Below are positions 1 through 62,221 of a stretch of DNA of 64,000 bases, piece after piece (position 1 is the stretch's first letter; the number at the start of each line of letters is the position of its first letter). The translations under genes were made by a program, and so were the position numbers. The notes under the pieces were generated by a model. It was not told where the DNA came from and did no database searches. It saw nothing but the letters and a program-made list of their open reading frames with translations. This stretch comes from Hormiphora californensis (Eukaryota > Animalia > Ctenophora): assembly GCA_020137815.1 (NCBI GenBank), contig CM035362.1, positions 4,836,001 to 4,900,000 on the forward strand, written 5' to 3'.

Positions 1-3000
1 GAGGAAGAGTTTGGTAAAACATTCTGTTACCCGTGCAGGATCAAGTTTGATTCGGCCGAGGTAGGTTACTATCAATGGTAATGTATTAATTGCACTGAAC
101 TGCTGTAGACATCACCCACTCACTTCATACACACACAACACCCACACACATGACCAAGCCTGTACGACAGGTTATTGATCACCGGCTGTATTACAGCACG
201 AGAGAGCCGTCACTAGTATCGTGCAGTGATCCGTAGGTTACTATGTTATTATTATTGTTATTAACCTTGTTATTGTTACCCTTTTTATCCTTGATCTACT
301 CCTAGTACCCCGATTTATTGCAGGGGTTTGCAATTATATCGGGGCACTGGGGATCTAATATCTATCGAACCCCCTCACAGAGCGGTGTGGGCCTCACAAA
401 ATTGCACGCATATCAGTCATCACCTGAAATAGTTTTTTGTTAGAGTGTGCCATTTTCTGTTCTATTTGGGTGCCTTCAATAACACCCAGTACCCGCATCT
501 TGGTAATGAAACTACCCTTCCGCGCTAGAATATGCAATATAATAACAGGGGTGACTTCGTAACCAAACCCGCATCCCTGATGATCTGAACAAATCCAAAA
601 ACCCTTCTAATTAGTGTTTTAACCTGCAGAACCTGATCAAACATCAAGCGGGAGAGAAACACGCCCTAAAGGTGAAGGAGCTGTATCAGGACGAACACCC
701 TCCCCCGGCCCAGATCTGTCATGTGTGCAATATCTGGTTTACCAATGGACATGAGCTGGCTAACCACGAGCTACTTCTGATACACAAACAGGTAATTACA
801 TGTCATATTGCAATATATTGTCATGTAAAACATGTGCTATAATATATACCAGCTGTAACTGAAGCTTTGCTGTTTAGCTCTGGATTGATTTGAAAATCAT
901 TGAATTTTTTGCAACCTTCAGTCATTATTAATGTACACCGAGGGTCTCACACTACATTCACCATTTATGTTCATCTGGGCACGTCAACTCTACTCAACAT
1001 GAGCTGAAGCATGTAACCGACTTCTCCTTCGTTTTATCAGAAAAGGGCGGTCCTAACAAGAGTAGGCCTGATTATTGATATTGAGACTGGAGCAATTCAT
1101 TGGGCAGTACCTTCTTGTGCTGGGTCAGCCATGGCTCCTAAAGAGGATGTGGTCAGTGATCTAATCGTTGCGAGGATTTTTCACAAATTTGTATTTAGAT
1201 ATTTAAATATGCTCCTATTATTACTGGTACTCATAATACCACTAGGCCGGTGTACAATTGTTTACTCTAAATTTCTGTGAAAACTAGAACTTGTTTGCTT
1301 GCTCTAAAGCAAAGTTATAGCCGTTTAAACACGTGTGGAGCAAAATTCTGCGGAGCCCCCTCTACAGGAGATGTTTTTCATCCTTTCTCCTTGAAATTAT
1401 AGTAAATATACAATCAAATTATTTCTAGCTATACTGTTTAAAAATTAAAAGTCAGGAACTCAAATTGTGCGGAGCACATCGATTTTTTGTAGCAAATCTT
1501 ACTCTTTGGGGTTACTTAAAGTTACTTTACATTTTATTCATAAACTATTAGATTCTAGAGACATTTTAGGAGCTCTTCAAGTCATTAACTTGATCAAAAC
1601 ATTTACTCAAATTTGTGTGGAGCTGATTTTTCCTAGCCGATAATTTATTCCAAATTTAATCGACGGAAGATCTGCAGCTATACTTCCAAATAGAGTAATA
1701 AATCGAAAAGTAATAGGAGTAGCTTCTTGAAATAGGTCAATTAAGTTAGCAAAATGATAGTGGAGCAATATAAATGTATATTTCGAAGATACTGACTCAA
1801 AATATGTGGAGCAAATGAGCTTTTTTTGACAAAAACTGCTCCACATTGTTTGAGTTGTGTTTTAACGGGTTATTGATGTTGGAAATTAGTTGTCTAGATA
1901 ATTTGGCACCAAACAGGTATTACTTTAACCACAAAAATTAGCTCAAATTGTGCGGAGAAGCCCCTGAAGGAGCATTATTTTTTCTAGATAGTCATGAAGG
2001 TCGCCCAGAACATGGTACTGATCCTACTTTGGGCGTGTTCCTCCTTCCTAGTGGCTTGTTCAGCTTCTGATTCATTGCTCCACTGATTTTGAGTAAGGCA
2101 ATTAGTAATAATTGGTTAAACTACAACTAATATAATATTGGTTAAACAAACCAAAATATTCATCAAGGTCCAAGATACAAATGGTATTTCATGATTTTAT
2201 GTGTAACTGCTCCACACAATTTGAGTCACATGTTTAGGTATCAGTATTATTGTAATATTATGGTCCGATACATGATGTTTTGATGGAAATTAAACTTACT
2301 CTAGTCATATTCAATAATACATTATATACTTCGAAAATGAAGGGGAAAATAGTGTTTTGCTCCACAAATTTTGAGTCATAAGATTGAATTAGTGATCAAA
2401 TTAGTACTGTAGGTTGTTGTTACAACTTAACATATTGTTTTTAGTTTGTTTTTTAGTTAATTAAACCTGAAAAGTAGTAAATTACTAGAAAAATAATTTT
2501 AATCCATAAATAGAACGCCCGCTCCACACAATATGAGCATATCAAGGTAATTTTTTTTGCATGGAAATTAAACTTTAAATATTTGGGAAATGAGTTATAT
2601 GAATTTTAGAACATTATATTATGTTTATCTTACCTCAAATGGACAATAGAAAAAGTTACTCCTTCAAATAGCTATGGCTCCGCAAATTATGAGCAAACCT
2701 TTACTCTTCGGTAATTACGGTTCAGTTTCATCAATTATCTTGACATTTGCATATATCCGACTGTCATACTGATAAAACTCGAAAATCCAGGGAGCATTTA
2801 GCATCTTTGCCTTTGGGCTCCACATTATTTGAGTTGAAGGTTTAAAACACATGTAGTATACTAATTTAAACATATTTACATAAGTATACTAAATTTTATG
2901 TTGATTCAAGTACTCTAAGATGTCCTAATAAAGGTTTTAAAAATTTTGGTGGAAAATCCAACACCAACTTTTCCCAAAATCCTCGCAACGATTAGAACAC

Positions 3001-6000
3001 TGACCATGTTGGCAGACTCAACACCCGAGAAACACCTGACTACCCAACAACCTCCATTAGACAATGGGACAACGAAACCTCCGATCAAGTGCAGGATCGG
3101 GAGAATTCTTCTTACGGCTGTATGTCGAGTTCGACACGCCAAGAAAGAACTCTTCCGGAGTTATCCATGCTCATTCCCGGTGGCTCCAAAAGCCCGGAAA
3201 GTGACCATGATTTCTCCATTCATTCGACCGACTGTGTCGATGAGATCAACATCCACCCGGATGACGAGGAAGCTGTTCTGCTGGATGATCTGAAATCAAA
3301 GAAGGGGAACTCGCGACCGGTTGTATCTCAAAAGCGAGAAAGGCCGAGTTCTGCCTTCGGTGGTGAAGATATTGAACAGGGGAGGTCTGTCCGGCAACGT
3401 TCAATCTCCGTGAAAGTTAACCGTGAATCCCTTGAAGCAGAATGGCGGTGTTGTCGGTGTTCGACGAACAACTACAGGTCCAGGACTCTGTGTCGGAGCT
3501 GCTCTTATAGCCAATATAGGAGTGTTTCTGATGGACCGAGTGAGTCACGAGAGGAGCGTCGTCAGGTATCTTCCAGACAGACTTCTCAAGAAGACCGAGA
3601 GAGCGAACTCCAAAAGAAAACGGCGCGTGATCGAGAGATGACAGGACCGGATAAGAAGAGTATTTCCGAGAGTGGGTTGAGGACCCATCGAAGAAGGGGA
3701 GAAGAAGAACAAGAGAGAAGGGAGGAAAATGACGTCAGAAAGAAAGGGAAGGAAAGAAAGAAGAAAGATCGTGAGGAACAGCGGGAGGATGAGCCCCAGC
3801 CGAGCAGTAGTAAAAAGGAGGGGATCCCACCAAGAGGGTATTGGAATGCCCCTGAAATTGAAGAAGAAACTACGGAGGCGATGAGGGAAATCAAAGAGAA
3901 ATACCAGAAAAAAATGGAGGAGATAAATAACAGAAAACAGCACACAGCGAGGCTCCTGAAGTTCATACAAATGGTGAAGAAACAGAATGAAGCGTATCTC
4001 ATCCATCCGCGGGTATTTGTTGAACCCGGGGATTGTTTTGAAAAACTCCCCGATCACAGGCTATCTTTCTATGAGTGGAGCAAGTGGGACATAAGGGGAT
4101 ACTTCCCTATCAGACCCGTGGAGACGCTAGAAGAAAGAAGAAGAAGATTCGAAGAACTCCAAAAAATTACACGAGAAGGCACCTCATTAGAGGACAAATA
4201 CACCCGTCTGGCCGCTGTCGTCGAAGAAAGTATTGTGGACCTAATAGAGTGGGCGACTGAACGTTTAACTGAGTTGGTAATGGCTGGAAATCCAAAACTG
4301 TTACTTCCCCGTATTCCACTTGAGGATACGAAGAGGCTGAAGAAGAAGATCAATGACCAAATATTCCGCCTGGGTAATCTCTTGTTGACAGAGAGGATGA
4401 GAATCCTGACAAGGCCAAGGGCAACCACTCAAGAGCTGGCAGACCTCCTCGAGCTGGCGAGAAGGATTCTTCTCTTGGAGGAGTTCATGGAGGAAATCAA
4501 GCACCCCGCCTACAAAAGGGAATAAAGACCCCAAAGATATTTTCATGTTTTATAACGTTTTATAAATAGTGGTTGTATGTTGATGTTAGCAATGGAAAAA
4601 GTGAGGAAGTGTCATTTAAGGTAAATACGGGTCTCTCCAAGTATGTTTTTTTGGCTAGCTTATTTTTCTCTCTGTTGAAGTGCCCTCTCCATAGCAACAT
4701 TTTAGCTTCTAAACCGAGTGATTGACAGTTCTTAGTAAAGTTTTCTACAAAAGTGTACCGATTTATTTTCTAACTTTATTCCCACGAGATAACGACTATT
4801 TATTTGCCAGAGAGATGGCGAGGGATTTAAAGACGCTGATCCATCCCTCTTCGTGTCGGTGTCGACAAAATCCGATGGCTCGACATACTCATGGCCATTG
4901 TCCCAGTCACCTTAAATTTAGTTCTCTTTCTCACTGTCATTCATCAGCCATAGTTGTACTATATCGACCTCACACAGCATTCACCAAATTTTTACCTGAT
5001 CATATTGTGTCAAATCAAGTCAACAGATCTAGCCCCCAGCTCCTCAACCCAAAACATGTTGTAACCGATTTCCCTTTCGTTTTATCAGAAGCAGGCGGTT
5101 CTTGCGAGAGTGGGCCTGATGATCGACGAGGATACTGGAGCAATGCGTTGGGCAGAATCATCCTCATCTGGTGATAAGTTAATTTCCAATCCTACAGCAA
5201 TAGCTCCTCACTCCACTATCACGGCAACAACTCCTAGGTCCACAACGGTCACAGGAGATACCCGCTCAGAAGAAGAAGAAGAAGAAGGGGATACCGTCAG
5301 AGTAAAGACGGGAATGACGCCCCCTATTATAGCTGATGTTATTACCGAGATGGAAGGAGTGCTCGGCTCACAAATGTCTCATGACACTGCTGTAAATGAC
5401 TTGTGGGAGTCACTGTTACATGAGATTAGAGGTATACCAGAGAATGAAGCAGTAGGTGAAGCGATAGAAGAAGATGATGAAGGATTCCAAAGAAAAGAGG
5501 AAGAAAAGAGAGAGATGAACAGAGAAGAAGAGAAAAATAGAAACGAAGCAGCGAAAGAAGACGATATGAATGAGGAAACTGATGAGAAAGAAGCGGAAAA
5601 GATCCCGGAAGATCCCAGCAAAGAGAACCCGAAGAAGAATCGGGAAAGTGAGACCAAAGAGTTCCTTGAAAAGAAACGAGAAGCGGAGAACACTGAGCGA
5701 TATGATAAAAATCGGGAAACTGAGATCCGCACTAGCCAGCGTTCTAGTAGAAGAAGTCATAGCCCAGAGAAGGGATTGAAAGCTTACAGCAGCGACCGAT
5801 ATGAAAAGAAACGGAGATCTGAGAGCAGACAGCGATATGAGAAGAAACGGGAAAGTGAGAGCACAGAGCGATATGAGAGGAAATGGAGAGCAGAGAGCAG
5901 AGAGCGTTATGAGAGGAAACGGAGAGCTGAGAGCAGAGAGCGTTATGAGAGGAAACGGAAAAGTGAGAGCAGAGAGCGATATGAGAAGAAACGGGAAAGT

Positions 6001-9000
6001 GAGAGCACAGAGCGATATGAGAAGAAGCGTAGAGCTGAGAGCAGAGAGCGATATGAGAGGAAACGGAAAAGTGAGAGCAGAGAGCGATATGAGAGAAAAC
6101 GGAAAAGTGAGAGCAGAGAGCGTTATGAGAGGAAACGGGAAGATACCAGTAGAGAGCGCTATGAGAAGAAGCGGAAATGTAGGAGCGTGAGCGAAGAGTG
6201 CTCTGAGGAGAAACGGAAAGATGACAATAAAGAGTCGCCAAAAAGGAATCAGGTAACTGAGACCAAAGTGTGTCCTGCAACGAAACATGAAGCTGAGACC
6301 AAAGATTACCCTGATAAGAAAGAAGAAACTGAGCGCAAAGAGTGTCCTGCAACGAATCAGGAAACTGAGAATAAGGAGTCGCCAAATATGAATCAGGAAG
6401 TTGGGACCAAAGTGTGTCCTGAAACGACAAATGAAGCAGAGACCAAAGTGTGTCCTGAAACGAATCAGGAAGTTGGCAGCGAAGGGTGCCCAAAGACCAG
6501 ACCACCTGCAGGGAAGAAGATCACCTTCAATATCAAATGGAAACCATTAGGCCCTTGTTCCGCTGCTACAACCCCACCACCCTCTGCTCCTTCAGGCCCT
6601 TGCCCCGCTACTACAGCCCCACTCTCTGTGCCTTTAGGCCCTTGCTCCATTATACCCCCACTTGCTGTGCCTTTAGGCCCTTGCCCCGCTGCTACACTCC
6701 CACCGCTGGACGAAGATGATAATTTGAGAGCGATCAGAATGGCTAAGGCAGTACTTGAGGAGCAGGAGAGAAAGATCATGGAGAGTAGAAAGAGGGCCAC
6801 TACCATACCAAATCCTGCAGAAATAAAAACTCACTCCACTACCGTCGCAGAAGATACCTGCAGAGTAAATACCGGAATTACACCTGACCACCCAACGATA
6901 GAAAAGAAGAAGGGAGTTGAGAACAGTGAATGCCAAGAGAAGAAGCCAGAAACTGAGAGTCAAGAGAAGAAGACAGAAACTGAGACCAAAGAGAGCCCTA
7001 GGAAGGAACAGGGAGTTGAAAGCAATGAATGCCCTGAAAAGAAACGGGAAATCAGAGTAATTACCTATACCCCTGACATCCCAGCCTTGAGTGTTGAGAA
7101 GAAGCTGGAAACTGAGAACAGTGAGAGTCAAGAGAAGAAACAGGAAACTGAGAACAGTGAATGCCAAGAGAAGAAGTCAAAAACTGAGAGCAGTGAATGC
7201 CAAAAGAAGAAACTGGAAACTGAGAGCAGTGAGAGTCAAGAGAAGAGCCTGGAAACTGAGAGCAAAGATAGTCAAGAGAAGGGCCTGGAAACTGAGAACA
7301 GTGAATCTCCTAAAATGAACCAGGATGTTGGGAGTGAAGAGTGCTCTGCAACGAATCATGATTATGGGATTCTCAAGGGGCTAGAGTTTGTTACCGATCA
7401 GGAGATAAAGTCATACTACGATCTATACATACGTGAGGAGCTGGCGAGACGCCCTCCAGCGTGCCAAAATCTCATCCAAGGAACTCAACATCAAAAGAGT
7501 GGTAGATCATCCATTGCTAGAATTCGTCGTCGAGAGCGGGCCAGGGCACGACGTCAGACTCACCTACCAACCATCCCTCCACCCCAGCAGAACCTAAGAG
7601 AGGGTGGGACACCCTCTTCTACAACTCCTCACCAACTCATCCGCCGTCGACATCCATTAATGCGGGTCAGGACACCACCCCCTCAGCATCCCGTGATCCC
7701 ACCACCCCTACAGAACCTAAGCCTGGCTAGCCTGGCTAGCATGGCCCTGGGTATGAAACCAACTCCTCTACCTCCGTGCCAACCCATCATCCCACCACCA
7801 GAGCAGTATCTAACGGAAACCCCTGCCACTATCCATCGAACCATCGACACACCCCCTGCCGCTAACCGACCCACCATGGCCATCCCACCCCTTCAGCAAG
7901 ACCTAAGAGAGAGGACTGTGGCCATGGTACCACCTATCCGCCGACGCATTAGCCCGCCACGCCAGGAGGACCCAAGAGAGAGAACCCGGGCTAGGACACC
8001 CCCTGCCGCTACCCACCAGCACATCAGCCCGCCACCTCAGTATGACCGAAGAAAGAGGACTGTGGCCATGGTACCACCTATCCGCCGACGATTTAGCCCG
8101 CCGCGCCAGGAGGATCCAAGAGAGAGGACCCGGGGTTGGACACCCCCTTCTGCTACCCGCCCGGACCTAAGAGAGAGGAGCCGAGATTGGACACCCCCTT
8201 CCGCTGTCCACAGTGCCGTCAACCCATCCATCCAACATGATCGTACAGGAAGGACCGTGACTATGGCACCCCCAACCTCTACCCGCCGCCCCGCCATCCC
8301 GTCACCTCAGCAAGACCGAAGAGAATGGAGCCGGGGTAGGACGCCCCCTCCCTCTACCCGCCGCCCCGTCAGCCCGCCACCCCGGGAGGATCTAAGAGAG
8401 ATGATCCGGGGTAGGACGCCCCCTCCCTCTACCCGCCGCCCCGTCAGCCCGCCACCCCGGGAGGATCTAAGAGAATGGAGCCGCGGTAGGACACCCCCTC
8501 CCTCTACCCGCCGCCCCGTCAGCCCGCCACCCCGGGAGGATCTAAGAGAGATGATCCGGGGTAGGACGCCCCCTCCCTCTACCCGCCGCCCCGTCAGCCC
8601 GCCACCCCGGGAGGATCTAAGAGAATGGAGCCGCGGTAGGACACCCCCTCCCTCTACCCGCCGCCCCGTCAGCCCGCCACCCCGGGAGGATCTAAGGGAG
8701 ATGATCCGATGTAGGACGCCCCCTCCATCTACCCGCCGCCCCGTCAGCCCGCCACCCCGGGAGGATCTAAGAGAGATGATCCGGGGTAGGACACCCCCTC
8801 CATCTACCCGCCGCCCCGTCAGCCCACCACCCCGGGAGGATCTAAGAGTAAAGATATCGACCGGACCGAGGGAACACCGACCTGATCTGTTATTCAATTT
8901 GTCCTCGTGTACCAGTGAGAAGGAGATAAAGTTCCTGTGGGACAAGAGGACAGATTCATTCGATCGAGAGAATATCATCCCACCCCTTATCCTCAGACCC

Positions 9001-12000
9001 TACCGCTTTATCATGGCAGGCGTCCTGCGTCGGGTCGAACAGACCGTCGATCAACCTCTGGGGGAGAGGGCAGCCTCCCTGGCATGGTGTTGTAATGAGA
9101 TATTGGAAGTGTGGAAAGAGATACGGTCATACCGGGGGAACATTGGAGGAAAACGCTCTAATTCTAAGAGGATTAAGGGATTGTTCTTCCCCCTTTTCCT
9201 CTTCATCAGTGTACTCCAAGACACACTGAAGGCATCGCCTACAACAGTGCTGGTTGCTGCTTCAATTGACATCGCCAGGGAGGCGGCCAACCTAACAAAT
9301 CTAATGAGAGCTAAAGGCAGGTGGTGATAATCCACCCTCCCCTAGCCACCCTCCCGATTTTAAGAGACATTAAATAGCTGGACTGGAACTATTTTTAGAT
9401 CACAATATGTTACATTTAGAAGTTTACTCAAGAACGGAGAACCGCTGTGGTTTTCATGCTCCCAGCTCTGCAGTGTTGGAAGTTTGTTTGTCCTGTGGGG
9501 TCTGAGCGTGTGTCGTGTGAATATGATTCTATTTTTATGTATGATTATACTTTTTATCATTATTTTTATACATTTTTAATCAATTTTATATTCTTTTTAA
9601 TCGAACATTGTGTTTTACTCCCCAAATTTTCAATTATCACTACTTTTAACTCTGTCTCTCCCATAGCATGGCCTCAGCTGGTCTCTGTGTGTGTTTCTGT
9701 CCATAGTATGTAGGTGTGTTCTGTATACCTCCCGTACTGCCACCCACCTGCTATCGCTGGGGAGCAGCGATCATAGGTGTGTGTAGGTTGGAGTTTGATA
9801 CAATATGATTTCAGTCACCCAGTTTTTGGGTTGTTGAGTAATTGGGATGGTTGAAATGATCATTGGTGCAGCTCCCACTACCATAACAGAACCCTCAGAG
9901 CTCAGCTGCTTCAATTTTTAATCATTGCTGCATATAATAACCCTACATTTCTAATTCTTATCCTAAAATATAAAACTCTCGAATGTTTACTAACCCCTGC
10001 CTTTTCTCCCCTTTCAGAAACTTCGGATATTTACAAAGTATGGTATTTCTATCCCGGGTGTGGACTATGCACTCAACCCAAGAAGGAACATAACTGTGAC
10101 AATAGCTGATGACCCCGTCGTCAGCCCAAAGAAACAAGACAACAAGGAGGAGGTGAAATCTACTGGAAGCAGATTCTCAGAGGAGAAGAAGCCAACTAGC
10201 AGCAGGTTCTCAGACGCGGCCACCGAGAAGAAGTCGGCTGATCATGGTAAGCGCATTAGAGGAGGGGTTCTGAGGGGGAGGGAGGAGAGGGATTCTGAGG
10301 GGAGGGAGGGAGGAGAGGGATTTTGAGGGGGAGGGAGGGAGGAGAGGGATTTTGAGGGGTGTACTAATTTTGGGTTATGAGCAGATGTGGATGATTTTTG
10401 TGCAGTATTATGGTTCGACTTTTTGGGTGTTGGTCACAAACTTTATTACAGCAACCCCATCTCCCTATTTGAACAAAACATATACTGATAACAGAGAAAT
10501 TTCCAAATCTTTAACCCACCATCCTAACTTATGTCCCATTTCTCACCCTAGCACTCTTTTTCATCAGATTTCGCTGTCCCTGCGCCTCCCCTACCACCCA
10601 AAGCGCTGGCGGATATCTGCAAGTATCACGCAGAAGCCTCATCCTCGTCCTCAGAAGAGGACAAGCTCCCCGAAGAAAAGGGGAAGGAGAAAGGTAGACT
10701 GAAACGAAGGAGAAGAGGAAGAGGCCGTTTATTTGATTTTTGTTCTTTTGTGTTTATCTTTTGTGTCCCAAAAACTGCTCAAAAATCCCCAAATTTCACA
10801 CGAACTTCAAAATATCTTTGGGATTTTTGAGTAGAACAAACCAAATCAATTCATAACACAATTCCCTTAGGATCAAAAACCAGTAAATCTCGATACTCTT
10901 CTCGGCGACGATCACGATCTAGAAGCCGGAGTCCTAGAAGTCGACGATCCGAACGAAAACGACGAAGAAGTCGATCTCGATCACCGAAATCGTCTCGGAG
11001 GGTTAAAGCAGAGAAAAGCTACAAAAAGTTCGTGAAGTCGGACAAGTTTTCGATAAACCCGACGAGTAGCAAGACGAACGAGGAGGATAACGATGACTTC
11101 CAGGTTGTCGATCAGGAGGATGAAACCATTGAAATTAGTGATGATGAGCCCGAGGGGGAGCCAGCACCACCGGGAATCGGGGGCACTCCATCCACTTCTA
11201 CCAGTAGGGATGTCACAGGTCACGAGGACAAGGACGAGGAGGAGGAGGAGACTGTGAATGTGGTGTGTTTAGAAAGTGATGATGAGGAGGGAGAGGGGAA
11301 GAAGAAAGATGATCCTGTCAAACCAGATGGCGACAAAGATAATTCTAAATCAATGTGCCAGGAAGTTACTGTGGCCGATGATAATTGCTTGTCTACTGCC
11401 GAAGAGAAAGAAAGAGCGGAAAAGGGTGCGGCTGAAATAAAGGCAAAAGAAGAAAGAGAACGAGTTTTAGCCGAAGCAAGAGCTAAAGCAGAAAAAGAAA
11501 GGGCCGAAGCTCAAGCTGAAAAGGAGAGGATCTTGAAGGCAAAGAAAAGGGTGGAGAAGGAGAGGGCTGACGCTAAAGCTAAGATGGAAAGAGAAAAGGC
11601 GGAAAGAGAAAAGGTGGAAAGAGAAAAGGTGGAAAGAGAAAAAGCGGAAAAGAAAAGGATAGAAAAGGCTAGGGAGATAGCGGAAAGAGAACGGTTAGTA
11701 AAAGAACGTGCAGCAGCTGAAGCAAAAGCCAAGATGGAGCATGAGAGGCAACTACAGGAGAAGGCTATAGCTTTGGCGAAGGCTAAAGAAGAGAAAGAAA
11801 TTGAGGAACAGGAAAAGGCAATGAAGAAAGCAAAAGTAGAAGAAGATCGTAAGAGAAAGTTGGAAGCAGAAGCAAAGGCGAAAGTTGAAAAGAATATGAT
11901 TTTGGCACAGGCCAGGATAAAAGAGAAGGCTTTAGCTGAGAGGAAGGCTAAAGAAGAAAAAGAAATTGAGGAGCAGGAGAAGGCCATCGCGGAGGCTATG

Positions 12001-14752: not shown

Positions 14753-14861
14753 CAGGAACCGACCGACACAAGTAAACAACTAATCAGAACTCGTTATTTA
14801 GGTCACGTGACTGGTTATCAGCCAATCAGGGACCAGTATTTCCTGATTCGGTCGGTTCCTG
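14753..14861. mobile_element. 109-bp hAT-type MITE, representative copy. Other full or partial copies start near 15120, 22120, 23579, 25150, 29497, 35503, 35765, 36803, 42048, 46952, 47728, 53631, 54180, 57426, 59017, 59554, 60079, 61713
   Basis: TIR caggaaccgaccga...tcggtcggttcctg. 8-bp TSDs are perfect in several copies (taacgtac, gtaatttc, ttacttac, ctattgta, gtttgtac) and 7/8 here. CAG...CTG ends with an 8-bp TSD are typical of hAT. Confidence 0.9.
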
Positions 14862-17190: not shown

Positions 17191-19005
17191 CACCCCGTGC
17201 CTGAACAAAGTTTAACCTCGGATGAAAAATGTACACTAAGCGGACTTCACTAGGGTCTTCAGATAGGTATTTGGAGTGGAAAAATGTAAAAAAACACCCC
17301 AATTTTATGAAAAGTTTTTTCTCTACATGGATTTTAAAATGGGTCGTTTTGACTGTCAAAACGGCTTGAAAACCATGCTGTCTGCAGATTTATAGTCCTT
17401 TTCCGGTAAAAAGGTTGTACCTGACCGTTTTTTGCACGTAGAATCGATTGTCGGTGAAGAAAAATCTCTAAAACGACTGGAAAATGGTCAAAATTTGATT
17501 TTTTGACGTTTTTTGAGGGTTTTTAGCCCCTAACCCCATCATGACATCAAGATAGAAAATTTTCACTAGTGTCAAACGTTAAAATGGACATTTTTCTACC
17601 GGATCCCAAAGTCTCAGATAAATCCAATAACAGGGTAAAATTTGGCTAGTTATTGAAAGTGGCTAGATGAGAGAAAGTGAACTTGAACTTAATATTTTCA
17701 CAATTTTGGCCTTTTTGACAAACTTCTGATTAAAATGGCCAATCAGGACCATGCTCACGCTAAAGAAGGGACAATTTCCTACTAAAATACAAATTTTCAT
17801 GCCGATACGACAACAGGTCATGGATCTGTAGCAAATTTAAGCGAGCTAACTAGGCTATTTCTACTGTCAAAAAAGGTCAATTTTTCTTATTTTCGGGTCG
17901 ATTGGTAGTAAAAAAGGGTACCCGACCTATTTTTGCCCGTAGAATTGATTTCCGATGGAGTTGGACCTCTAGATCGTCAGGAAAATTGAAGAAAACGAAT
18001 ATTTCAGTTTTTCGGGTAAATAGCCAGAAAATGAGTAAAAAACAAAAAAAATGAAATTAACCTATTTTCTCGTAGATTAAGAGCTCCAATTCCATTTTAG
18101 ACTGATTTTACGTGAAAAATTGGGTTGGGAACCCTTTTGATTGCCGACTGACACTAAATTACCATTTTCTGGCTATTTACCCGAAAAACTGAAATATTCG
18201 TTTTCTTCAATTTTCCTGACGATCTAGAGGTCCAACTCCATCGGAAATCAATTCTACGGGCAAAAATAGGTCGGGTACCCTTTTTTACTACCAATCGACC
18301 CGAAAATAAGAAAAACTGACCTTTTTTGACAGTAGAAATAGCCTAGTTAGCTCGCTTAAATTTGCTACAGATCCATGACCTGTTGTCGTATCGGCATGAA
18401 AATTTGTATTTTAGTAGGAAATTGTCCCTTCTTTAGCGTGAGCATGGTCCTGATTGGCCATTTTAATCAGAAGTTTGTCAAAAAGGCCAAAATTGTGAAA
18501 ATATTAAGTTCAAGTTCACTTTCTCTCATCTAGCCACTTTCAATAACTAGCCAAATTTTACCCTGTTATTGGATTTATCTGAGACTTTGGGATCCGGTAG
18601 AAAAATGTCCATTTTAACGTTTGACACTAGTGAAAATTTTCTATCTTGATGTCATGATGGGGTTAGGGGCTAAAAACCCTCAAAAAACGTCAAAAAATCA
18701 AATTTTGACCATTTTCCAGTCGTTTTAGAGATTTTTCTTCACTGACAATCGATTCTACGTGCAAAAAACGGTCAGGTACAACCTTTTTACCGGAAAAGGA
18801 CTATAAATCTGCAGACAGCATGGTTTTCAAGCCGTTTTGACAGTCAAAACGACCCATTTTAAAATCCATGTAGAGAAAAAACTTTTCATAAAATTGGGGT
18901 GTTTTTTTACATTTTTCCACTCCAAATACCTATCTGAAGACCCTAGTGAAGTCCGCTTAGTGTACATTTTTCATCCGAGGTTAAACTTTGTTCAGGCACG
19001 GGGTG
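17191..19005. mobile_element. Foldback non-autonomous transposon, ~840-bp inverted arms, Chapaev-like (CAC...GTG, 4-bp TSD TTGT)
   Basis: caccccgtgcctgaacaaag... / ...ctttgttcaggcacggggtg; arms nearly identical; ~130-bp spacer; ttgt on both flanks; mirrored ORFs in the track. Confidence 0.9.
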
Positions 19006-22248: not shown

Positions 22249-25200
22249 TTACTCTGTGTACTCAAAGGGCTCGGGAGGGGGTGCCTCTGCATCATCTCCG
22301 TCCTTAGATTCGTCTCCTGAAGCTGAAACAATTGATTAGGTTAAATTTGCTATGTTCTAACCCTCCCTTTACATTTGATTCGGGGGCGGGGCGCCCGAAA
22401 CACAGTCTAGCCAGGCAAGGTTAAATCAGGTTAAATTCTGAGTAGGGTCCTCGACAATGGTTCACGCCCATGGCAACCGCTCAAATCAAATCAAATCAGA
22501 TCAAACTATGTCATTCTTGCTCACAACTCTTATCTCTCAAAATAGCCACTCAATCTCAACCACTAAACACTCACCGGCGGGTTTGACAACCTCAATAATC
22601 TCCTCCGTTTCTCCCTTCTTTCCATCCCTGAGAATAACAAATCCTCCTAGACCGTTCCTGTTCCAGACACTCGAGTATCTGCTGTCAGCAGGAATATCCA
22701 TCACTGCTCGTTGGTCTGTGGGGGGGGGTGGTAATGTAACCTGTCTTTGGAGGTGCATGGATACTATCACGGTGGGGGTTTAGAAATAAAATTGGTGATT
22801 GCTATGATGGGAAAGTGATTAGGAGTTGGGAGACATACCAACAAGAACTCGAGCAGGATTTTCTAGCAGCTCAAACTTGGGCTCATCCTTCTTCTTCTCC
22901 GTTTCTTTCTTCTTCTCTTCTTCAGCTTTCTTCTCTTCCTCGGCCTTCTTCTTCTCTTCTTCCTTCTTTTTCTCCTCAGCTGGAAGATTTTAAAATGTTA
23001 CAAACATGTGTAAAATAGCCAGACTTCTCTTGACTATTTATTAAGTTAGAGCCGGACCAAATCACTATATGTATCACCTTGTTACCCTCTTTACAAGTGG
23101 GGTGCGGTGAGAGAGAGAGAGAGGGGGGAGGGGGGAGGGGTAGTTGAGCAAGACAATTACCACCAACATGGGGGGGGGGTTACCTTGTTTTTCCTCATCT
23201 ACATCCATGGGCGTGGCACGTCCCTTTGCCAACTTCTTCACAGTAGTAGACAGAATGGCAGTGCTAACCTGGGAAAAGAGTTTAAATCTTCTATTTTGAA
23301 ATTCAGATATCGAAAAAAAGGAACATATTATGGCAGTTCAGAACCAGTTCATTTTGATCATAGTTATAATCCATCATATTGATGACCAAGTTTAATCCAT
23401 CATTTTAATACATAATCCCATATATAATAATTGTAATTCATAATTGTGATCCATCTCACCTTCTCCTTCTCTTTTTCCTTGGGTGCCTCTAGAATGGGTG
23501 GGTAGGCGTAGGTAGAGGGACGGGCACAGGACCTAAATTTAGTCTTGGGCATCTGTGGAAGACGAGGTTACTGGTTAGCAGGAACCGACCGAAACAAGTA
23601 AACAACCAATCAGAACTCGTTATTTAGGTCACGTGACTGGTTATCAGCCAATCAGGGACCAGTATTTCCTGATTCGGTCGGTTCCTTGTAGCAGCATTTC
23701 ACGTGTTTACTTTTTAATTACAATGAAGGTGATCTAAAAACTGTTTTGATATATATTGACTCACGTTCAGATCACTGTTTAGTCCAATCAGGTAGGTAGG
23801 CTGGAAGGCAAGACATAGGAAGTGGGATAGAGGGAACCAAAACCAGGTATGGGTAAAGACAAGAAGTCCTGCTACAGGAGGGAATGTTGGTATGTCCATA
23901 TTGGGATCTCATTGAGATAGTACAGTTCCTGCCACCAGCATTGATAATTCCCTAATAAGGAGTGTTTTAGAGTATGACCAAATATGGTTATGAGATTAAT
24001 GGCTAAATAAGGTCATGTATGTACCTGTGAAAGAATAGCACCGAATTTAACCATCACGTCCTCATGTTTATCACTCATCGTCTTCGCAAACAGATCCTTG
24101 AAATGCTTCAACTGCGGATAATACATGGTGAATAATGATATATCACTAAATGTGTGTGTGTGTGTGTGTGTGTTTACTCATTACCTCTCGGTGCTCCAAC
24201 CCCCCTCTACTAAACCCCTCTACTAATAATGATATCACTAAATGTGAATGAGTACTAGAGAGATGCGGGCTCTAGAGGAAACAATTTCATGTTGGAGGGG
24301 GGGGGGTCCAGCCCTTAAAAAAGCTAAGCCATCGGCCAAAATTAGGGTACCTTTAGCTTTTTAAGCTTTTTAGCCGCCCCCCCATGTTTGATAAATAAAC
24401 ACATGATGATATATCCCGTATCAGTAAATGAGTTCCGATGCTAGAGGGGAGCACGAGAGGATGCAATACCATCATACTATTATTAAAGCAAATAGGGAAA
24501 TCCAGTGTAACGTTTTTTACCTTATATGGCATTTAGCACGTGCAGGTTTAGAGCCTAGAGGTGAACTGTGGAGTACTATTGGAGTGGGGCCAGGAGTCGG
24601 AGCCGTTGCCAATGGCATGGTTGCTACTGTTATACTGCACGTGCACGTGCATTTGATCTTGCTTTAGTCTGTTTCACTGTTCCAGCTAATTATATGCTCT
24701 CTTCAACAACTCTTGATATACGACAGCGACAATTGGAGTTATTCACGCAAGATCTCACCGCTATTCTCTACTTTTCCATACACTGAGGGGTTCAAATGCA
24801 GCATCACCAAAAGAAGTGCAGAGAGAACGAACAAGACGTTAGAGGTTAAACAGAACCGATGATCAATCTCAGAGATTAAGGCAGATGAATACTGCAAGCA
24901 GACGAAATAGTAAGTTCTTTTATAACTTTGATCGCCGGATCATCATTTGACGTTCTGAAACCAGAAACTCGCAGCGATCCCGCCTGAGCTCCTACTAAGG
25001 TACCGTTACTTAAGATGGGATTGTGCATGTCATTAGTTAGACTGATGATGTCAGTGTTCCCTATTCCAGCTACCAATACCATTTCCCCGAAATTCGCCCG
25101 TAGGGCGAACGGGTTTACTAGTAGTTTTAATTAATATATTATAACGTACCAGGAACCGACCGAACCAAGTAAACAACCAATCAGAACTCGTTATTTAGGT

Positions 25201-26041
25201 CACGTGACTGGTTATCAGCCAATCAGGGACCAGTATTTCCTGATTCGGTCGGTTCCTGTAACGTACCTTGGGGCACATTTGCTCATTCTGTTGAACGAGG
25301 ATCATGGCTGTAGCAAGAAGAGCTCCCTGTCGAACATAGTTAACTGGATCGTTCAGCATTGGTTCCAATATTGTTAGGGCTTCCTTCATACCCGAGCCTG
25401 GAGAAAGAGGGGTGGGTGATGTCTTCAGGACATTTCATCGAAAATATTGAGTGTCGTCACGATACACTCCTCATACCAATTTGGTATGGAGGGTGTTGGT
25501 ATGGATGGTGTTGGTATGGAGGGTGTTGGTATGGAGGGTGTTGGTATGGAGGGTGTTGGTATGGAGGGTGTTGGTATACAAGAAGAAGTAGGGATTCTGT
25601 GACGATTGAAATCGTAGCCTTCACAATTTACCTGCACAGCTAATTCCAAGAGCCAGTGCGGCGCCATACCGGACATGGCTGTTGTAGCTCTCGGCAAGGA
25701 GAGAAACCACGTTAGGACATTGTTCAGGGGCATTGAACAGAATGAAACCAATGCTTATCACAGCTGCCCTTCGTACATCATCGTTCACATCACTGAGGGG
25801 AGGGAGGGGTTGATAAGAAGTGGGATGAATTTAACAATTTCCCCAGCCTATATCCATAATTTACGTACTTCTTTTTTCTTCAAATTTAGTCCAAAAACCA
25901 ATTAAATAAATTAGTTTGGATGCCCGGGCCCATGTGGTGTCACGGGGGTAACACCTACTGCCATAATTAACGGCATATCTCGTTAATTGTTAATTGTTAT
26001 CCTTCAATCTGTCTATCTTTATCTATCTCTCTCACTCTCTC

Positions 26042-29100: not shown

Positions 29101-32100
29101 CGAGAGATAAGGAATGATATTAGCACCGTGATTTGCATGGATCATTCCCAGTGCATACAAGGCCCCACCCTCCTGGTAGGGACTACCACTGCCGCTATCC
29201 TTAGGCAGATATGATGACATTAGCTTGATCGCATTCGTCTCATGTCCGTGGTGGATGACTCCGAAACTGGCAGTTGCAGTGAATTTAGCCCAGTTGGTAG
29301 CTTTAGCCAACCACTCGAGATTATCCCTGGGAGTGGAGAGTATGGTATTGTTTTGTTGTTCAAACCCTTTTTATTGGTGTGAGACAGTGTCGAGCTAATG
29401 TTAGTTATTCATTGCATCTAGAAAACACCCCCACCCCCCCCCCCCCCCAAATAGCATGTACAATTATTAGATGGTATTACAAGTAAATCTAACTATCAGG
29501 AACCGGCCGAATCAGGAACTACTGGTCCCTGATTGGCTGATAACCAGTCACGTGACCTAAATGACGAGTTCTGACTGGTTGTTTACTTGTTTTGCTAACT
29601 ATTTTACCTGAGGAAGGCATTGTTGGTGGTTCCAGCGTGCATGAATGAGTTAGCGATAACAGTAGCAGTGTGACACACAGCGTTCCTTGAGGAGTCCTGG
29701 AAATAGAGGGAGGGTATAAAGGAGGAGGCTAAATACAGAACCTGTAAATCGTGGGATATTGATTTTCGAATACAAATGCCGAATGAGCTAGAGTTCACTC
29801 ATTGTTTGTGTGGGGGGGGGTCCAGCCCTAAAAAAAGCTAAGCTAACGGCCAAAATCAGGGTACCTTTAGCTTTTTTTAGCTTTTTTTAGCTTTTTTTAG
29901 CTTTTTTTAGCTTTTTTTAGCTATTTTTAGCTTTTTTTAGCTTTTTTAAGGCTAAAAAAAGCTAAAAAAAGCTAAAAAAAAGCTAAAATTGAGTTTTTAG
30001 TGGATTCATATAGGTTCGAATCCCGCTGACGCCAAATTTTTTAAACTTTTATTATAACGTTTTATAACGTTTTTTGAACTTTTTTAAAACTATTTTTATC
30101 AAATTTGAATAATATTTTTATCGAAAAAATGTCTCCAGAAAATGGCAGTAGGGGTGGATACAGAAATTGCTCTGTATGGACATAAACGGTAGATTATGGT
30201 AAAAAATGTGCAGGAAATGAACAAATGCAGTCAATAGACGTCCGGAAGGATGAAAATTTAATGGAAAAGTGTCAAGATGAATGCTGAAAAAAACATAAAA
30301 AGTAGGGCTAAAAAAAGCTAAAAAAAGCTAAAAAAAGCTAAAATAAAAAACGCTATCGACCAAAATCAGGGTACCTTTAGCTTTTTTTAGGGCTGGACCC
30401 CCCCCCCTTGTGTACAATTCTGTGAATCTTGAGAGCCGGACGCGCGTGATACAAATGCTGAAAAGTTGGGTTTTCATTAAACTGCGCGCGTTTTTGCTAG
30501 TTGTTGGCTCTTTCTGCAGTCATGTCCCAATTCAGTTGGTGTAGCGGCAGTGACACTGTGTAAATGGGTGTGGCAATTTATGTATAGCTGCAGAAAACAG
30601 TATAAGTAGACCCTTGAACCCAGTCTCAGTTGACAGAAAGGGGCCTAACGAAGGAATCGAATTAGCCGGATTAACAAACAGGATCGACACATGCGGACAT
30701 AAAAAGTTTTATGAAGGAGTTAGTGAAACTATTCAAAAAGCTTTTTGTATCAGTATCCGTCTTCAAGTCGATGTTGTGTTTTACTTTTATCGCTCCAACA
30801 ACCTACAACTCAAGGATTGGCTTATGATGCAGAGTCAACAGAAATTACTGCTGAAATAGTTGTGATTTTCTTATGAATATACCGAGCAGTACCCTCCGGG
30901 AAGATACGCTTGTTTTGTTAAATCAATTCAATCTAACAACCAATCATAACTACACCTAACATGGAAATCGACACTGCAACCCTGATCACGGTGCACCAGA
31001 AGGATCGTCAACCCAAAGTTGAGCCCGCAAAACAAACTTTTGCTGGGGGTGACCCAGGAGGCCTTCCTGAACATCCCCACGGTGAGAAAAGTATATGTTA
31101 TCGGGGGAAATTTTTGTTAAAATCGAAAAAACTGGTTTTTGGTCCAAATTTGTGCATAACTTACTTGACTGCCGTTTGATGAAATATCTGATTGACATAA
31201 AATAAGTATACAAGACCTATTTTTGCACGAGGAATCGATTGCCGGTGGAGAGAAATCTCTAAAATGACCGGAAAATTGTCAAATATGGGAATTTTGTCAT
31301 TTTTTTGAGGTTTTTGGCCCTTTAACCATTGAAAACGTTGAGATAGGAAGTTGGAAATAGCGCCAATCGTTAAAATGGTCATTTTTCTACGGGATCCCAA
31401 AATTTCATGTATATCCGATTTATGGTTAGATTTTGGCAAACTATTGAGATGTGCTTACTGAAAAAAGGATAACTTGATTTTCTCGTTTTTTGCGATTTTT
31501 TAACTTTTGACAGAATTCTGATTGAAATGGCCAATCAGGGCCACGCTAAAGTTGTTTATGGGACAATTTTCGACCAAAATCCAAGATTTCATGCAAATCC
31601 AATGACAGATCATTGATTTATAGAAAGTTGAAATAGGCAAAAAAGGCCAATTTTTACCATGAAAATAAAAATTCACATTTTTTCTGGTCAATTTCCGTCA
31701 ACAACTGGTACCCTACCTATTTTTGCACGTAGAATCGATTGCCGGTGGAGTGGATCCTCTTAAACGATTGGAAAGCGGTCGAAATGCCATTTATTGGAGG
31801 CCCAAAAAACCGCCCAAAAATGGCATTTCGACCGCTTTCCAATCATTTAAGAGGATCCACTCCACCGGCAATCGATTCTACGTGCAAAAATAGGTAGGGT
31901 ACCAGTTGTTGACGGAAATTGACCAGAAAAAATGTGAATTTTTATTTTCATGGTAAAAGTTGGCCTTTTTTGCCTATTTCAACTTTCTATAAATCAATGA
32001 TCTGTCATTGGATTTGCATGAAATCTTGGATTTTGGTCGAAAATTGTCCCTTAAACAACTTTAGCGTGGCCCTGATTGGCCATTTCAATCAGAATTCTGT

Positions 32101-35100
32101 CAAAAGTTAAAAAATCGCAAAAAACGAGAAAATCAAGTTATCCTTTTTTCAGTAAGCACATCTCAATAGTTTGCCAAAATCTAACCATAAATCGGATATA
32201 CATGAAATTTTGGGATCCCGTAGAAAAATGACCATTTTAACGATTGGCGCTATTTCCAACTTCCTATCTCAACGTTTTCAATGGTTAAAGGGCCAAAAAC
32301 CTCAAAAAAATGACAAAATTCCCATATTTGACAATTTTCCGGTCATTTTAGAGATTTCTCTCCACCGGCAATCGATTCCTCGTGCAAAAATAGGTCTTGT
32401 ATACTTATTTTATGTCAATCAGATATTTCATCAAACGGCAGTCAAGTAAGTTATGCACAAATTTGGACCAAAAACCAGTTTTTTCGATTTTAACAAAAAT
32501 TTCCCCCGATAACATATACTTTTCTCACCGTGGGGATGTTCAGGAAGGCCTCCTGGGTCACCCCCAACAAAAGTTTGTTTTGCGGGCTCAACTTTGGGTT
32601 GACGATCCTTCTGGTGCACCGTGTGATCGCAATGCAAATCATCCCTATTGCCACATTGCTACTGGGGATACTAGCTGTATTCGTCATCACGAAGATGATT
32701 GGAAGAACTGAGGAAGGCATCGCTAATTATGAAGCTTATGAAACCCAAAGACAACTGAAACTTTTGTTTTTTAATAATTGTGATTTTCTTCTGAATAAAC
32801 AACCGTGACTAGAACCACTGACTGCAGAACTAGGTCCCATGTTTAGGACAATCATTGAAAAGAACAAGGTAAGCACAATAAATATAACTTGTTTCACAAT
32901 TTCCAATCTGAGTACAACTCAGGTACACGTTAGTACGATTGTAACACCTCCTATCCTTGCAGACAATGACACACTCGATCGTGGACAGGTCAATGTGAAT
33001 CTTGCATCCAGACAAGGAGGCATCCTACACCAGCTCCAAAGGATGCATTTTAGGAGGTGAACATTCACTTTGAGATGCTAAAAAATGGTGCAGGCCCGTC
33101 CATCACCGGACTCCATGCCGCCAACCAGACCGATCCGGTGCCCTGATCCCACCGTGCAGCACAAACCGACTATGTTGTGCTGGACATGGAATGAGTGTGT
33201 GAGTGTGTGTGTGACGTGCAGTGTGACGTGTGTGTGAGGTGAGCTCAACGGGGGGAGTTCAGAAATGAGCTCTTCGTGCCAGCTCAGCCCTGATATCCCA
33301 TCTGTGTGTTGGGAGATCAGGGCTTAGTCCCGTTGCCGTGGACCTGCTGGCTGATGGTCCAGTGAGTACGGTCAACTCACACAAAAAATTAGAAATCATA
33401 AAAGTAGTTGAGATAATTTATTTGTGTGCTTTAAAGACTTTGTGTATGACTTGGTGTGTATCTAGCTGGGCTTACATACACAGATTCGCCGGTTAGTAGG
33501 GAATAAGATTTAGATCGTGTATAAAAAGAAATATAATTTTACCTTGCAGTTTTTGAGTACCAGCATATCACTACTACTCTTCCTAATGAGGAACTGAGAC
33601 TTCAGTGTAATGGGGACCTCTCCATTCAGAATAGATGCCACATGTTCCTTTTTCTTATCGATAGCGGAATCCTGAAGAGAGAGGGGAGGGTTAATATAGT
33701 GTGGGAGCTGGAGGTTAATAGCGGAATCCTGAAGAGAGAGGGGAGGGTTAATATAGTGAGGGGAGCTGGAGGTTAATAGAGGAATCCTGAAGAGAGAGGG
33801 GAGGGTTAATATAGTGGGGGAGCTGGAGGTTAATAGCGGAATCCTGAAGAGAGAGGGGAGGGTTAATATAGTGGGGGAGCTGGAGGTTAATAGCGGAATC
33901 CTGAAGAGAGAGGGGAGGGTTAATATAGTGGGGGAGCTGGAGGTTAATAGCGGAATCTTGAAGAGAGAGGGAAGGGTTAATATAGTGGGGGAGCTGGAGG
34001 TTAATATCGGAATCCTGAAGAGAGAGGGGAGGGTTAATATAGTGGGGGAGCTGGAGGTTAATATCGGAATCCTGAAGAGTGAGGGGAGGGTTAATATTGT
34101 GGGGGAGCTGGAGGTTAATAGCGGAATCCTGAAGAGAGAGGGGAGGGTTAATATAGTGGGGGAGCTGGAGGTTAATAGCGGAATCCTGAAGAGAGAGGGG
34201 AGGGTTAATATAGTGGGGGAGCTGGAGGTTAATAGCGGAATCCTAAAGAGAGAGGGGAGGGTTAATATAGCGGGGGAGCTGGAGGTTAATATCGGAATCC
34301 TGAAGAGAGAGGGGAGGGTTAATATTGTGGGGGAGCTGGAGGTTAATAGCGGGATCCTGAAGAGAGAGGGGAGGGTTAATATAGTGGGGGAGCTGGAGGT
34401 TAATAGCGGACTCCTGAAGAGAGAGAGGGGAGTGTTAATGCAGTGGGGGAGCTGGAGGTTAATAGCGGGATCCTGAAGAGAGAGGGGAGGGTTAATATAG
34501 TGGGGGAGCTGGAGATTAATATCGGAATCTTGAAGAGTGATCTGATTAGGTTCTATTCAAGCCAAAGCAAGTGGAGTGAGAGGGACGCGAGAGGCACGCG
34601 AGAGGCACGTGAGAGGCACGTGAGAGATCGAATCATATATTATTGAATTTGATATAATGAGCACTATTGTGACAAGTGAAAACAAGTTTTTTACACAATC
34701 AACAAATGTTTCACGCGAATGCGATCGTCAGGATTAAAAATGTAAACTTGTTTACTCGTTAACAGTCCTCTGCTCCTTCATAAAGTTGGATGTTTCATGA
34801 GTTTAACGGCTAGATACTTCCTCTTGTGCGGACACTTGTTTAACAGTTCGCTCTTCCTGTTTATCAGGTCCTTCCCTCTGAGGATGTGGTACTTTTCCGC
34901 CAGACACAGATTACAGGTTATATTACCAGATATAATGAGCACAAATGACACGATTTACATAATAATGCGGGGTTACTTATATGTGGGAGGATAATTCAAG
35001 AGATAAGCCAGTTGGCGTCAGAGATCACTGCCGTATGATTAAAACCAAATTACGAGAAGAGGTTGGTGGCTGGCGGTGTATCACGTCAGGGGACTTAGTG

Positions 35101-44535: not shown

Positions 44536-44621
44536 GCAAATCGTTATTTGCCGGTTCAGTTTACTCTTACATTGATGCTCCCTTTTGACGAGACAGAAAA
44601 GCCTATAGTGGCAAAACTATT

Positions 44622-45610
44622 GTTAGAACCCCGGACGGACTAACAGACATATTTGAAATAGTTGCCGGGGTGTTGCAGGGAGATACACTAGCGCCCTACC
44701 TGTTTATCATTGTGCTCGATTACTGTATGCGGACAGCACTGGAGAGGCACCCTGATATTGGATTTACACTGAAACCTGCCCGAAGTAGAAGAGTTTGTGC
44801 AAAGAGAGTAACTGACACAGATTTTGCTGATGACGTTGCTCTTCTTGCTGATTCGGTGGAGGATCTTGGGGTTCTTATGCGGGAGGTGGAGAGCACCTGC
44901 AAGGAGGTAGGGCTAGAAATAAATCGAGCTAAGACGGAATACATGGTCGAGGGAATTCCGGATCCTGGTACTCTCCACAGTATCGACGGAACCTGTATCA
45001 AACTCTCAGACGACTTTAAGTATCTTGGCTCTTGGATAAGAGACTCAAAGAGGGACATCAAGGTTAGGAAGGCTAAGGCCTGGAATGCATGTCATGGGCT
45101 CAGGAACATCTGGACGTCGAAACTCAGAGACGAGATCAAAGCTAGACTTTTTGTAGCAACAGTTGAAACGGTCCTCCTGTATGGATGCGAAACCTGGACG
45201 CTTACAAAGGATATGGAGCGGAGTCTCAATGGTACCTACACCAGAATGCTGAGGATGGCACTAAATAAGAACCAGTACCTCCTCCAGATGAACAACGCGA
45301 CATTGTATGGTATCGGGAAACTCCCTATTCTCAGCACCAAGATCGCTGAAAGGAGACTCAGACTCGCCGGCCATGCTGCACGTCATCCGGAACTAACGCT
45401 CAACAAAGTGTTACTTTGGGAGCCTCTCCACGGACACTCCAGACGAGGGCGACCAAAACAGACCTTTGTGGATGTATTGCGGCGGGACACGGGACTCAGG
45501 GAAACCTCCGAAATAGCTTCTTTGATGGCTGATCGTGTAGAGTGGAGGAATGTTATCCATGGAGTTCGGAAATACCACACGTGGAATCCGCCCTAAGTCA
45601 AAAGTCAATA
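44622..45610 (+). mobile_element. 5'-truncated non-LTR retrotransposon (RTE-like clade), reverse transcriptase C-terminal half
   Basis: GVLQGDTLAPYLFIIVLD, DFADDVAL, FKYLGS, LLYGCETWTL, RRLRLAGH, RRGRP; ends in short aagtc repeats right after the stop. Confidence 0.92.

Positions 45611-47930: not shown

Positions 47931-62221
<14,291 letters not shown>

Follow-up and report, generated by a model that had tools for sequence, protein, structure and literature searches.

A transposon lying in an alternative coding exon of the ctenophore Hormiphora californensis is probably spliced out as a newborn intron

Introduction

What becomes of a coding exon when a transposon lands inside it? The question is raised by a 64,000-nucleotide stretch of the Hormiphora californensis genome (assembly GCA_020137815.1, contig CM035362.1, positions 4,836,001 to 4,900,000 of the forward strand; hereafter the window, to which all coordinates refer), in which an 1855-bp DNA transposon with terminal inverted repeats (TIRs) interrupts an exon of a zinc-finger gene. 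A first-pass annotation, made from the letters alone, had proposed that this element carries its own in-frame splice sites and is either a large animal introner, that is, a TIR transposon that creates new spliceosomal introns, or a splice-tolerated insertion. In the data compared here, we observe the insertion itself, an empty allele, the splice junction and a scar of +15 nt that keeps the frame open. Our analyses indicate that the transposon, whose insertion site in the alternative coding exon is an ATGT, behaves as a newly arisen intron that is probably removed by the spliceosome. We read its TIR as having a fortunate property that yields occasional introns, rather than as the mark of a proven intron-making family.

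Results

Eight sequencing runs are listed, none of which is recorded as RNA, and seven of the eight (X1 to X6 and X8) were compared, all as assembled contigs. X8, a presumed RNA run, contributed 0 matching records, which counts neither for nor against the junction. Runs X1, X2, X3 and X4 derive from one sample and X5 and X6 from a second. One X1 contig (1973 nt, depth 12.1) matches 1038-1150 and 2995-4700 with 0 mismatches, and its joint 1150->2995 was reported as 'skips 1844, GT..AG (cut +1)'; on a short stretch, the match runs to 1151 and resumes at 2996. The contig opens in the end of exon 630-791 and continues from this upstream exon through 1041-1151 to 2996. The junction that the first-pass annotation had predicted, GAGGATGTG joined to AACACTGACC, is present in this contig with 0 mismatches. 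The features concerned are as follows.

1152..2995, plus strand: new GT-AG intron of 1844 nt, phase 0 (X1 contig, depth 12.1, 0 mismatches)
630..791, plus strand: coding exon upstream of exon A, weakly matching a C2H2-type zinc finger at a level under the Pfam cut-off
1041..1151, plus strand: 5' part of the alternative exon A, before which the X1 contig carries the last 12 nt of exon 630-791
2996..4525, plus strand: 3' coding part of exon A, 509 codons to the stop, including a conserved C-terminal part

Loose ends in X1 lead from 60 to 630, from 791 to 1041 and from 791 to 10018, each over a GT-AG intron, and cover is absent at about 1000-1035. Because of these other GT-AG joints and the missing cover, X1 behaves as RNA and is likely an RNA run. 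A processed DNA copy is an unlikely source of the junction, as the joined (1151/2996) form is not among the matches listed in X2, X3 or X4, which come from the same sample as X1. An alternative donor at 1149, inside the target duplication, was also rejected, since the contig retains 1149-1151. Of the seven X1 records on 1000-1260, none crosses from host into element in unspliced form, contigs being prone to drop rare forms.

The consequences for the reading frame agree with what had been predicted. The insertion point lies 110 nt inside the exon that begins at 1041. Exact removal of the element leaves 541 open codons from 1041 (...KEDVGRLNTRE...), close to the roughly 540 first claimed, and splicing out 1152-2995 leaves 546 (...KEDVNTDHVGRL...), in frame, with a gain of 15 nt and no stop. 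When the element is left in, the frame closes after 79 codons. The scar is composed of 1 nt of the left TIR, 10 nt of the right TIR and 4 nt of duplicated target, and adds five residues. Among 5180 possible excisions with cuts near both ends, 18 can be read as GT..AG, and the frame stays open with 11 of the 70 GT/AG pairs near the ends; therefore, in-frame potential alone is never strong evidence.

Empty-site alleles, which had also been anticipated, were found in both samples. Run X3 contains an inserted-junction contig (depth 255.5) and an empty-site contig (depth 161.8), and the same two forms are present in X4 (depths 26.8 and 57.2, respectively); the empty-site contig of each run differs from the inserted form at three letters in 1079-1150. 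Allelic differences lie at 1109 and 3010, with a 6-nt indel at 3154. The sample shared by X1, X3 and X4 is thus likely heterozygous for the insertion. In the second sample, X5 displays an empty-site joint 1146->3006 with four shared letters and X6 has three empty-site contigs, while no inserted junction is among the matches listed for either run. The presence of both alleles in one sample, together with empty sites in another, shows that the insertion is segregating and suggests that it is likely recent. All exon A sequence in X1 (1038-4700) belongs to the inserted haplotype, though DNA of this sample holds both alleles, which may reflect biased expression of one allele or a collapse of the two forms during contig building (bubble collapse). 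The paralogous exon at 5089 was considered as a stand-in for the empty site and rejected, its alignment being confined to 1012-1123.

The element has the structure first ascribed to it: 1855 bp, 30-bp TIRs and ATGT on both sides.

1151..3005, strand not assigned: non-autonomous TIR DNA transposon, likely Sola1-type, 1855 bp, 32% GC
1147..1150, plus strand: left target-site copy ATGT, present as a single ATGT in the empty allele
3006..3009, plus strand: right target-site copy ATGT, kept in the mRNA
1151..1180, plus strand: left TIR, of which base 1 is exonic and bases 2-7, GTCAGT, are the donor
2976..3005, plus strand: right TIR, with the AG acceptor at 2994-2995 and its last 10 nt (2996-3005) remaining exonic
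1459..2833: internal 17-bp motif in 10 copies, the first three on the minus strand and the other seven on the plus strand

The two TIRs are identical at 29 of their first 30 bases, and the TIR pattern has two matches within the 64-kb window compared with 0 in 100 shuffles. The GC content of the element (32%) is lower than that of the interrupted exon (48%). Its longest stop-free stretch, over all six frames, is 84 residues, and the element is hence classed as non-autonomous. No second copy of the element was found within the window, nor was the 17-bp motif found there outside the element; the motif copies are likely putative transposase-binding sites. A search of Rfam with 1000-3200 gave 0 matches, as did exact scans for the TIR in metagenome contigs and in viral contigs.

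Other members of the element family are represented by contigs with mismatches at 51 of 829 and at 47 of 431 letters. The depth at the element ends exceeds that of the flanks in X2 (229-270 vs 32-51) and in X4 (464 vs 84-96), which, depth not being a copy number, hints at a small family. One diverged member, seen in an X1 record of 444 nt with 0 mismatches to 1152-1181, has a perfect TIR with the AG. A loose end behind 1181 was evaluated as a second family sharing the TIR, and was instead assigned to the right end of this diverged member of the same family. Loose ends in X1, X3 and X4 (window 1147 and 3009) disclose two further element junctions, both adjoining ATGT, the flanks of which have 23 overlapping letters, with a palindrome among them. 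These junctions may stem from two insertions in one repeat, or from a right end and a left end in tandem, each bordered by ATGT, with 28 nt between the two ATGT copies.

The element ends admit a second description, in which the TIR is one base longer (5'-TGGTC) and the duplication is a 2-bp TG; the empty site fits equally well. We prefer the 4-bp ATGT duplication because both other listed element junctions adjoin ATGT, a preference that the 2-bp reading would likewise require. The superfamilies hAT, piggyBac, Kolobok, Sola3, Ginger and Chapaev are characterized by a duplication of 8 bp or of TTAA, or by termini of TGT or CAC, features that the present element, with its ATGT duplication and GGTC termini, does not share. 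Non-autonomous Sola1 elements show AWWT/AWDT duplications and TIRs that start with GG (PMC3845634). As ATGT fits the AWDT target, is found on both sides of the element and is single in the empty allele, the element is likely Sola1, a class predicted from the target duplication. Its 30-bp TIR opens with GG as in Sola1_NA, though two bases are weak evidence and the 5'-TGG reading is equally possible. The Sola1_NA elements described in Bombyx, Rhodnius and Heliconius resemble it in their AWDT-type 4-bp duplication, TIRs of ~30 bp beginning with GG and non-coding interior, but TIR identity to the present element ends after the first two bases (PMC3845634). Sola2 likewise has 4-bp AWWT duplications (PMC3627910).

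In X1, exon 630-791 is joined to both 1041 and 10018, which makes the interrupted exon an alternative, not a constitutive, terminal exon of the zinc-finger gene. Three alternative exons, at 1041, at 10018 and, as a candidate, at 5089, follow exon 630-791, and the main X1 path leads to 10018. The opening sequences of those at 1041 and 5089 are paralogous (76% over 112 nt), and each of these two exons contains one long terminal open reading frame. The exon A isoform is likely minor, judging from a contig depth of 12.1 vs 291.8, a weak measure, as contig depth cannot rank parts of genes and is not taken as copy number. The 3' part of exon A has one close homolog, P0001 (39% over 417 columns), which supports that this part is really coding. 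The P0001 alignment starts at residue 124, well past the insertion site, so the insertion is outside the aligned part. A search of representative proteins returned three proteins, of which P0001 alone was strong; a separate search for longer homologs of exon A was negative, which is weak evidence. The Atlas search gave no usable match, and the six host-gene pieces had no Pfam match above cut-off. A pattern at about 3443-3502 is presumably a RanBP2-like zinc finger, a resemblance that Pfam does not return.

The splice signals used in the X1 contig reside in the TIR. Read forwards, the TIR opens with G/GTCAGT, the donor; read backwards, it closes with ...TAG/ ten bases from the end, the acceptor. 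At the right end, a 60-nt AG-free zone directly precedes the acceptor, with one candidate branch point upstream.

2925..2929, plus strand: CTAAT, a candidate branch point some 67 nt upstream of the acceptor

A 49-nt AG-free zone similarly precedes the AG of the left end when that end is read backwards. Because donor and acceptor lie in a symmetric TIR, copies in either orientation would be expected to offer both signals. For the same reason, a shared orientation of exonic copies, which the first-pass annotation had put forward as a test, is not decisive, and the phase of insertion is more telling. The 15-nt scar never shifts the frame, but it holds a TGA in two of the three phases for all 16 target/TIR combinations tested, and the copy analyzed here lies in the open phase, such that only about a third of coding insertions would be rescuable. 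This feature of the scar speaks for a lucky TIR property on which selection acts as a filter, rather than for a finely tuned introner.

Collectively, the data can be accommodated by the following model. A partner transposase encoded elsewhere in the genome would have inserted the element by cut-and-paste at an AWDT-type target. In the transcript, the TIR read forwards would provide the donor and the same TIR read backwards the acceptor, and both signals would be available in every copy, whatever its orientation. U1 would read G/GTCAGT, and U2 would use a branch point near 2928 and the first downstream AG past the 60-nt AG-free zone. The allele may have survived because the insertion occupies the one phase of three that is free of stops, within a stretch of low conservation in what is likely a minor isoform.

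Discussion

Several observations weigh against removal of the element as a newborn intron by the spliceosome. The junction is seen in one contig of one run, from a sample that is possibly the window's own source, and X1 is labelled 'DNA?', its RNA nature being deduced. Contigs drop rare variants, which hides the efficiency of splicing, other junctions and forms that retain the intron, and no empty-allele contig is found among the seven X1 records. The signals themselves are imperfect: the acceptor has a pyrimidine content of 0.50, compared with 0.61, 0.89 and 0.89 at three host acceptors other than that at 10018, and the donor carries a non-consensus C at +3. Moreover, the 30-bp TIR duplex could pair across both splice sites (-55.6 kcal/mol, calculated with the two ends). 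Another family member is present in X1 with both its ends retained (depth 53-70), and no transposase or autonomous partner was seen in the sequences compared, the element itself being non-coding. Even so, the proposal that this is a splice-tolerated insertion carrying its own in-frame splice sites holds for the copy at 1151-3005.

The same evidence bears on other explanations. Were the family a true introner, it would have many exonic copies, in either orientation and in the stop-free phase, all spliced at the same TIR sites. The location of both signals within the TIR is in keeping with this, as are the perfect TIR with its AG in the diverged member, the 49-nt AG-free zone available to the reverse orientation, and the existence of 'carry both' introners whose scars stay in frame (PMC9860276, Fig. 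2F; PMC12130899, 44 rows). However, a single spliced copy is seen, the TGA in two of three scar phases (16 of 16 combinations) is a poor design for an element selected to be harmless, and the other copy visible in X1 keeps its ends in the transcript. Depth points to a small family, and 1855 bp lies far above the family medians of 30-654 nt given in the 2022 survey (PMC9860276). We therefore consider such a family unlikely. The wider claim is that a Sola-type family of comb jellies acts as an introner in either orientation, with phase as a filter, that it is the first such case in ctenophores and that its new introns are still segregating; we hold this claim to be doubtful. If it were true, the introner would be several times longer than typical ones, and intron-bearing and intron-less alleles would be comparable within one animal.

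A different route to the same contig is SOS-type splicing, in which paired TIRs would promote a spliceosome-independent, multi-site excision and the contig would represent the commonest in-frame product to escape decay. The exonic DNA transposon, TIRs that can pair (predicted duplex of the element ends, -55.6 kcal/mol), cuts in the TIRs and short insertion correspond to properties 1, 2 and 4 of that process (PMC12779559). Its sites, by contrast, are rarely GU-AG, and the single junction here is GT..AG, as are only 18 of 5180 near-end excisions; in addition, the Tc1 repeats are 54 nt compared with 30 nt here, and a term search of PMC12779559 gives 0 mentions of ctenophores. SOS-type removal thus appears improbable. 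The insertion might also be mostly damaging, the spliced form being minor and most transcripts of the inserted allele being retained, truncated or diverted to other exons. Its weak acceptor and non-consensus donor would fit this, as would the absence of the insertion among the second sample's listed contigs and the depth of the exon A contig relative to that joining 630-791 to 10018 (12.1 vs 291.8), although depth cannot rank gene parts. Yet exon A in X1 is all of the inserted haplotype and spliced, and no unspliced or empty-allele contig occurs among the seven records, which leaves a mostly damaging insertion very improbable. Removal as a newborn intron, probably by the spliceosome, remains the explanation that we favor.

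The mechanism by which a transposon becomes an intron is already known, from Aureococcus-type introners and maize Ds. Wessler is said to have reported in 1987 that maize Ds is spliced from RNA. The related Ds1 supplies donors and acceptors near its ends, as the present element does near its termini, but Ds1 is a plant hAT element, is orientation-dependent and uses several sites, whereas here a single TIR gives both signals (PMC5395267). Single transposon-derived introns have been noted in many eukaryotes (review, PMC11282704). A close parallel is provided by the Aureococcus introners, in which the element brings both splice sites and the mRNA gains 12 nt (Gozashti 2022, PMC9860276). As in our case, these are DNA elements in coding exons, with both sites inside, an in-frame scar and an empty orthologous site. 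The differences are that the scar is 12 nt there and 15 nt here, and that the present case involves a ctenophore, 1855 bp, a 4-bp target, both alleles in one sample and one spliced copy. At this one locus, the element at 1151-3005 lies in an exon with an empty orthologous site and is removed at splice sites that it carries within its TIRs, as documented by one contig of a single run; such 'carry both' introner-like behavior is thus observed here as one transcript contig and an empty allele.

SOS splicing of Tc1, Tc3, Tc4 and HSMAR2 offers a second comparison (Zhao 2025, PMC12779559). There too, an exonic DNA transposon leaves animal mRNA by cuts within its TIRs, and a short indel remains that is tolerated in poorly conserved regions; the exonic position and base-pairing inverted repeats, with a predicted duplex of -55.6 kcal/mol, are found at 1151-3005 as well. 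SOS splicing, which involves AKAP17A, CAAP1 and RTCB, differs in producing many junctions that are rarely GU-AG, compared with the one GT-AG junction seen here.

As far as the consulted parts of the introner surveys extend, a ctenophore case is absent from them. The 2022 survey reported introners in two animal groups only, with 5 to over 2000 similar introns per family and family median lengths of 30-654 nt; it scored Mnemiopsis leidyi negative, and three Tara ctenophore genomes are named in it solely in the genome list (PMC9860276). File 8 of the 2025 survey by Gozashti contains 44 'carry both' rows, and its one Sola match is in Triparma; six ctenophore names gave 0 matches in the first 12 of its 14 supplementary files (PMC12130899). 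No report of a ctenophore introner or of a spliced Sola element was found in the literature searched, in which subscription papers are mostly uncovered.

Transposons are rarely seen to give rise to introns in animals, and here a single sample contains the insertion, its empty counterpart and the product of splicing. Ctenophores are often placed as the earliest-branching animal lineage. The presence of the two alleles side by side makes it possible to measure, allele against allele, what a newborn intron costs, and the locus constitutes a natural test of spliceosomal versus SOS-type removal of transposons in ctenophores. For the family as a whole, the prediction is that surviving coding insertions would be present in both orientations and in one phase only.

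Additional Features of the Window

The window harbors further mobile elements. A 109-bp miniature inverted-repeat transposable element, whose 12-bp TIRs are perfect and whose duplications are mostly of 8 bp, and which we take to be hAT-like, has 19 hits in 64 kb (14753-14861 and 18 more, e.g., 25150-25258 and 59017-59129). Several of its duplications read GTA... on one strand and are donor-like, and a location at intron starts may be frequent. At 17191-19005 lies a nearly full palindrome of 1815 bp with CAC termini and a 4-bp TTGT duplication, presumably a Chapaev/CMC-like element, with a relative at about 31214-32396. By eye, a 335-codon frame at 44589-45596 resembles the 3' part of a non-long terminal repeat (non-LTR) reverse transcriptase. 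A 774-codon open frame at 37844-40168 encodes a receptor with LDLa repeats and a seven-transmembrane region; it belongs to a large ctenophore family with named relatives from Mnemiopsis leidyi and Bolinopsis microptera.

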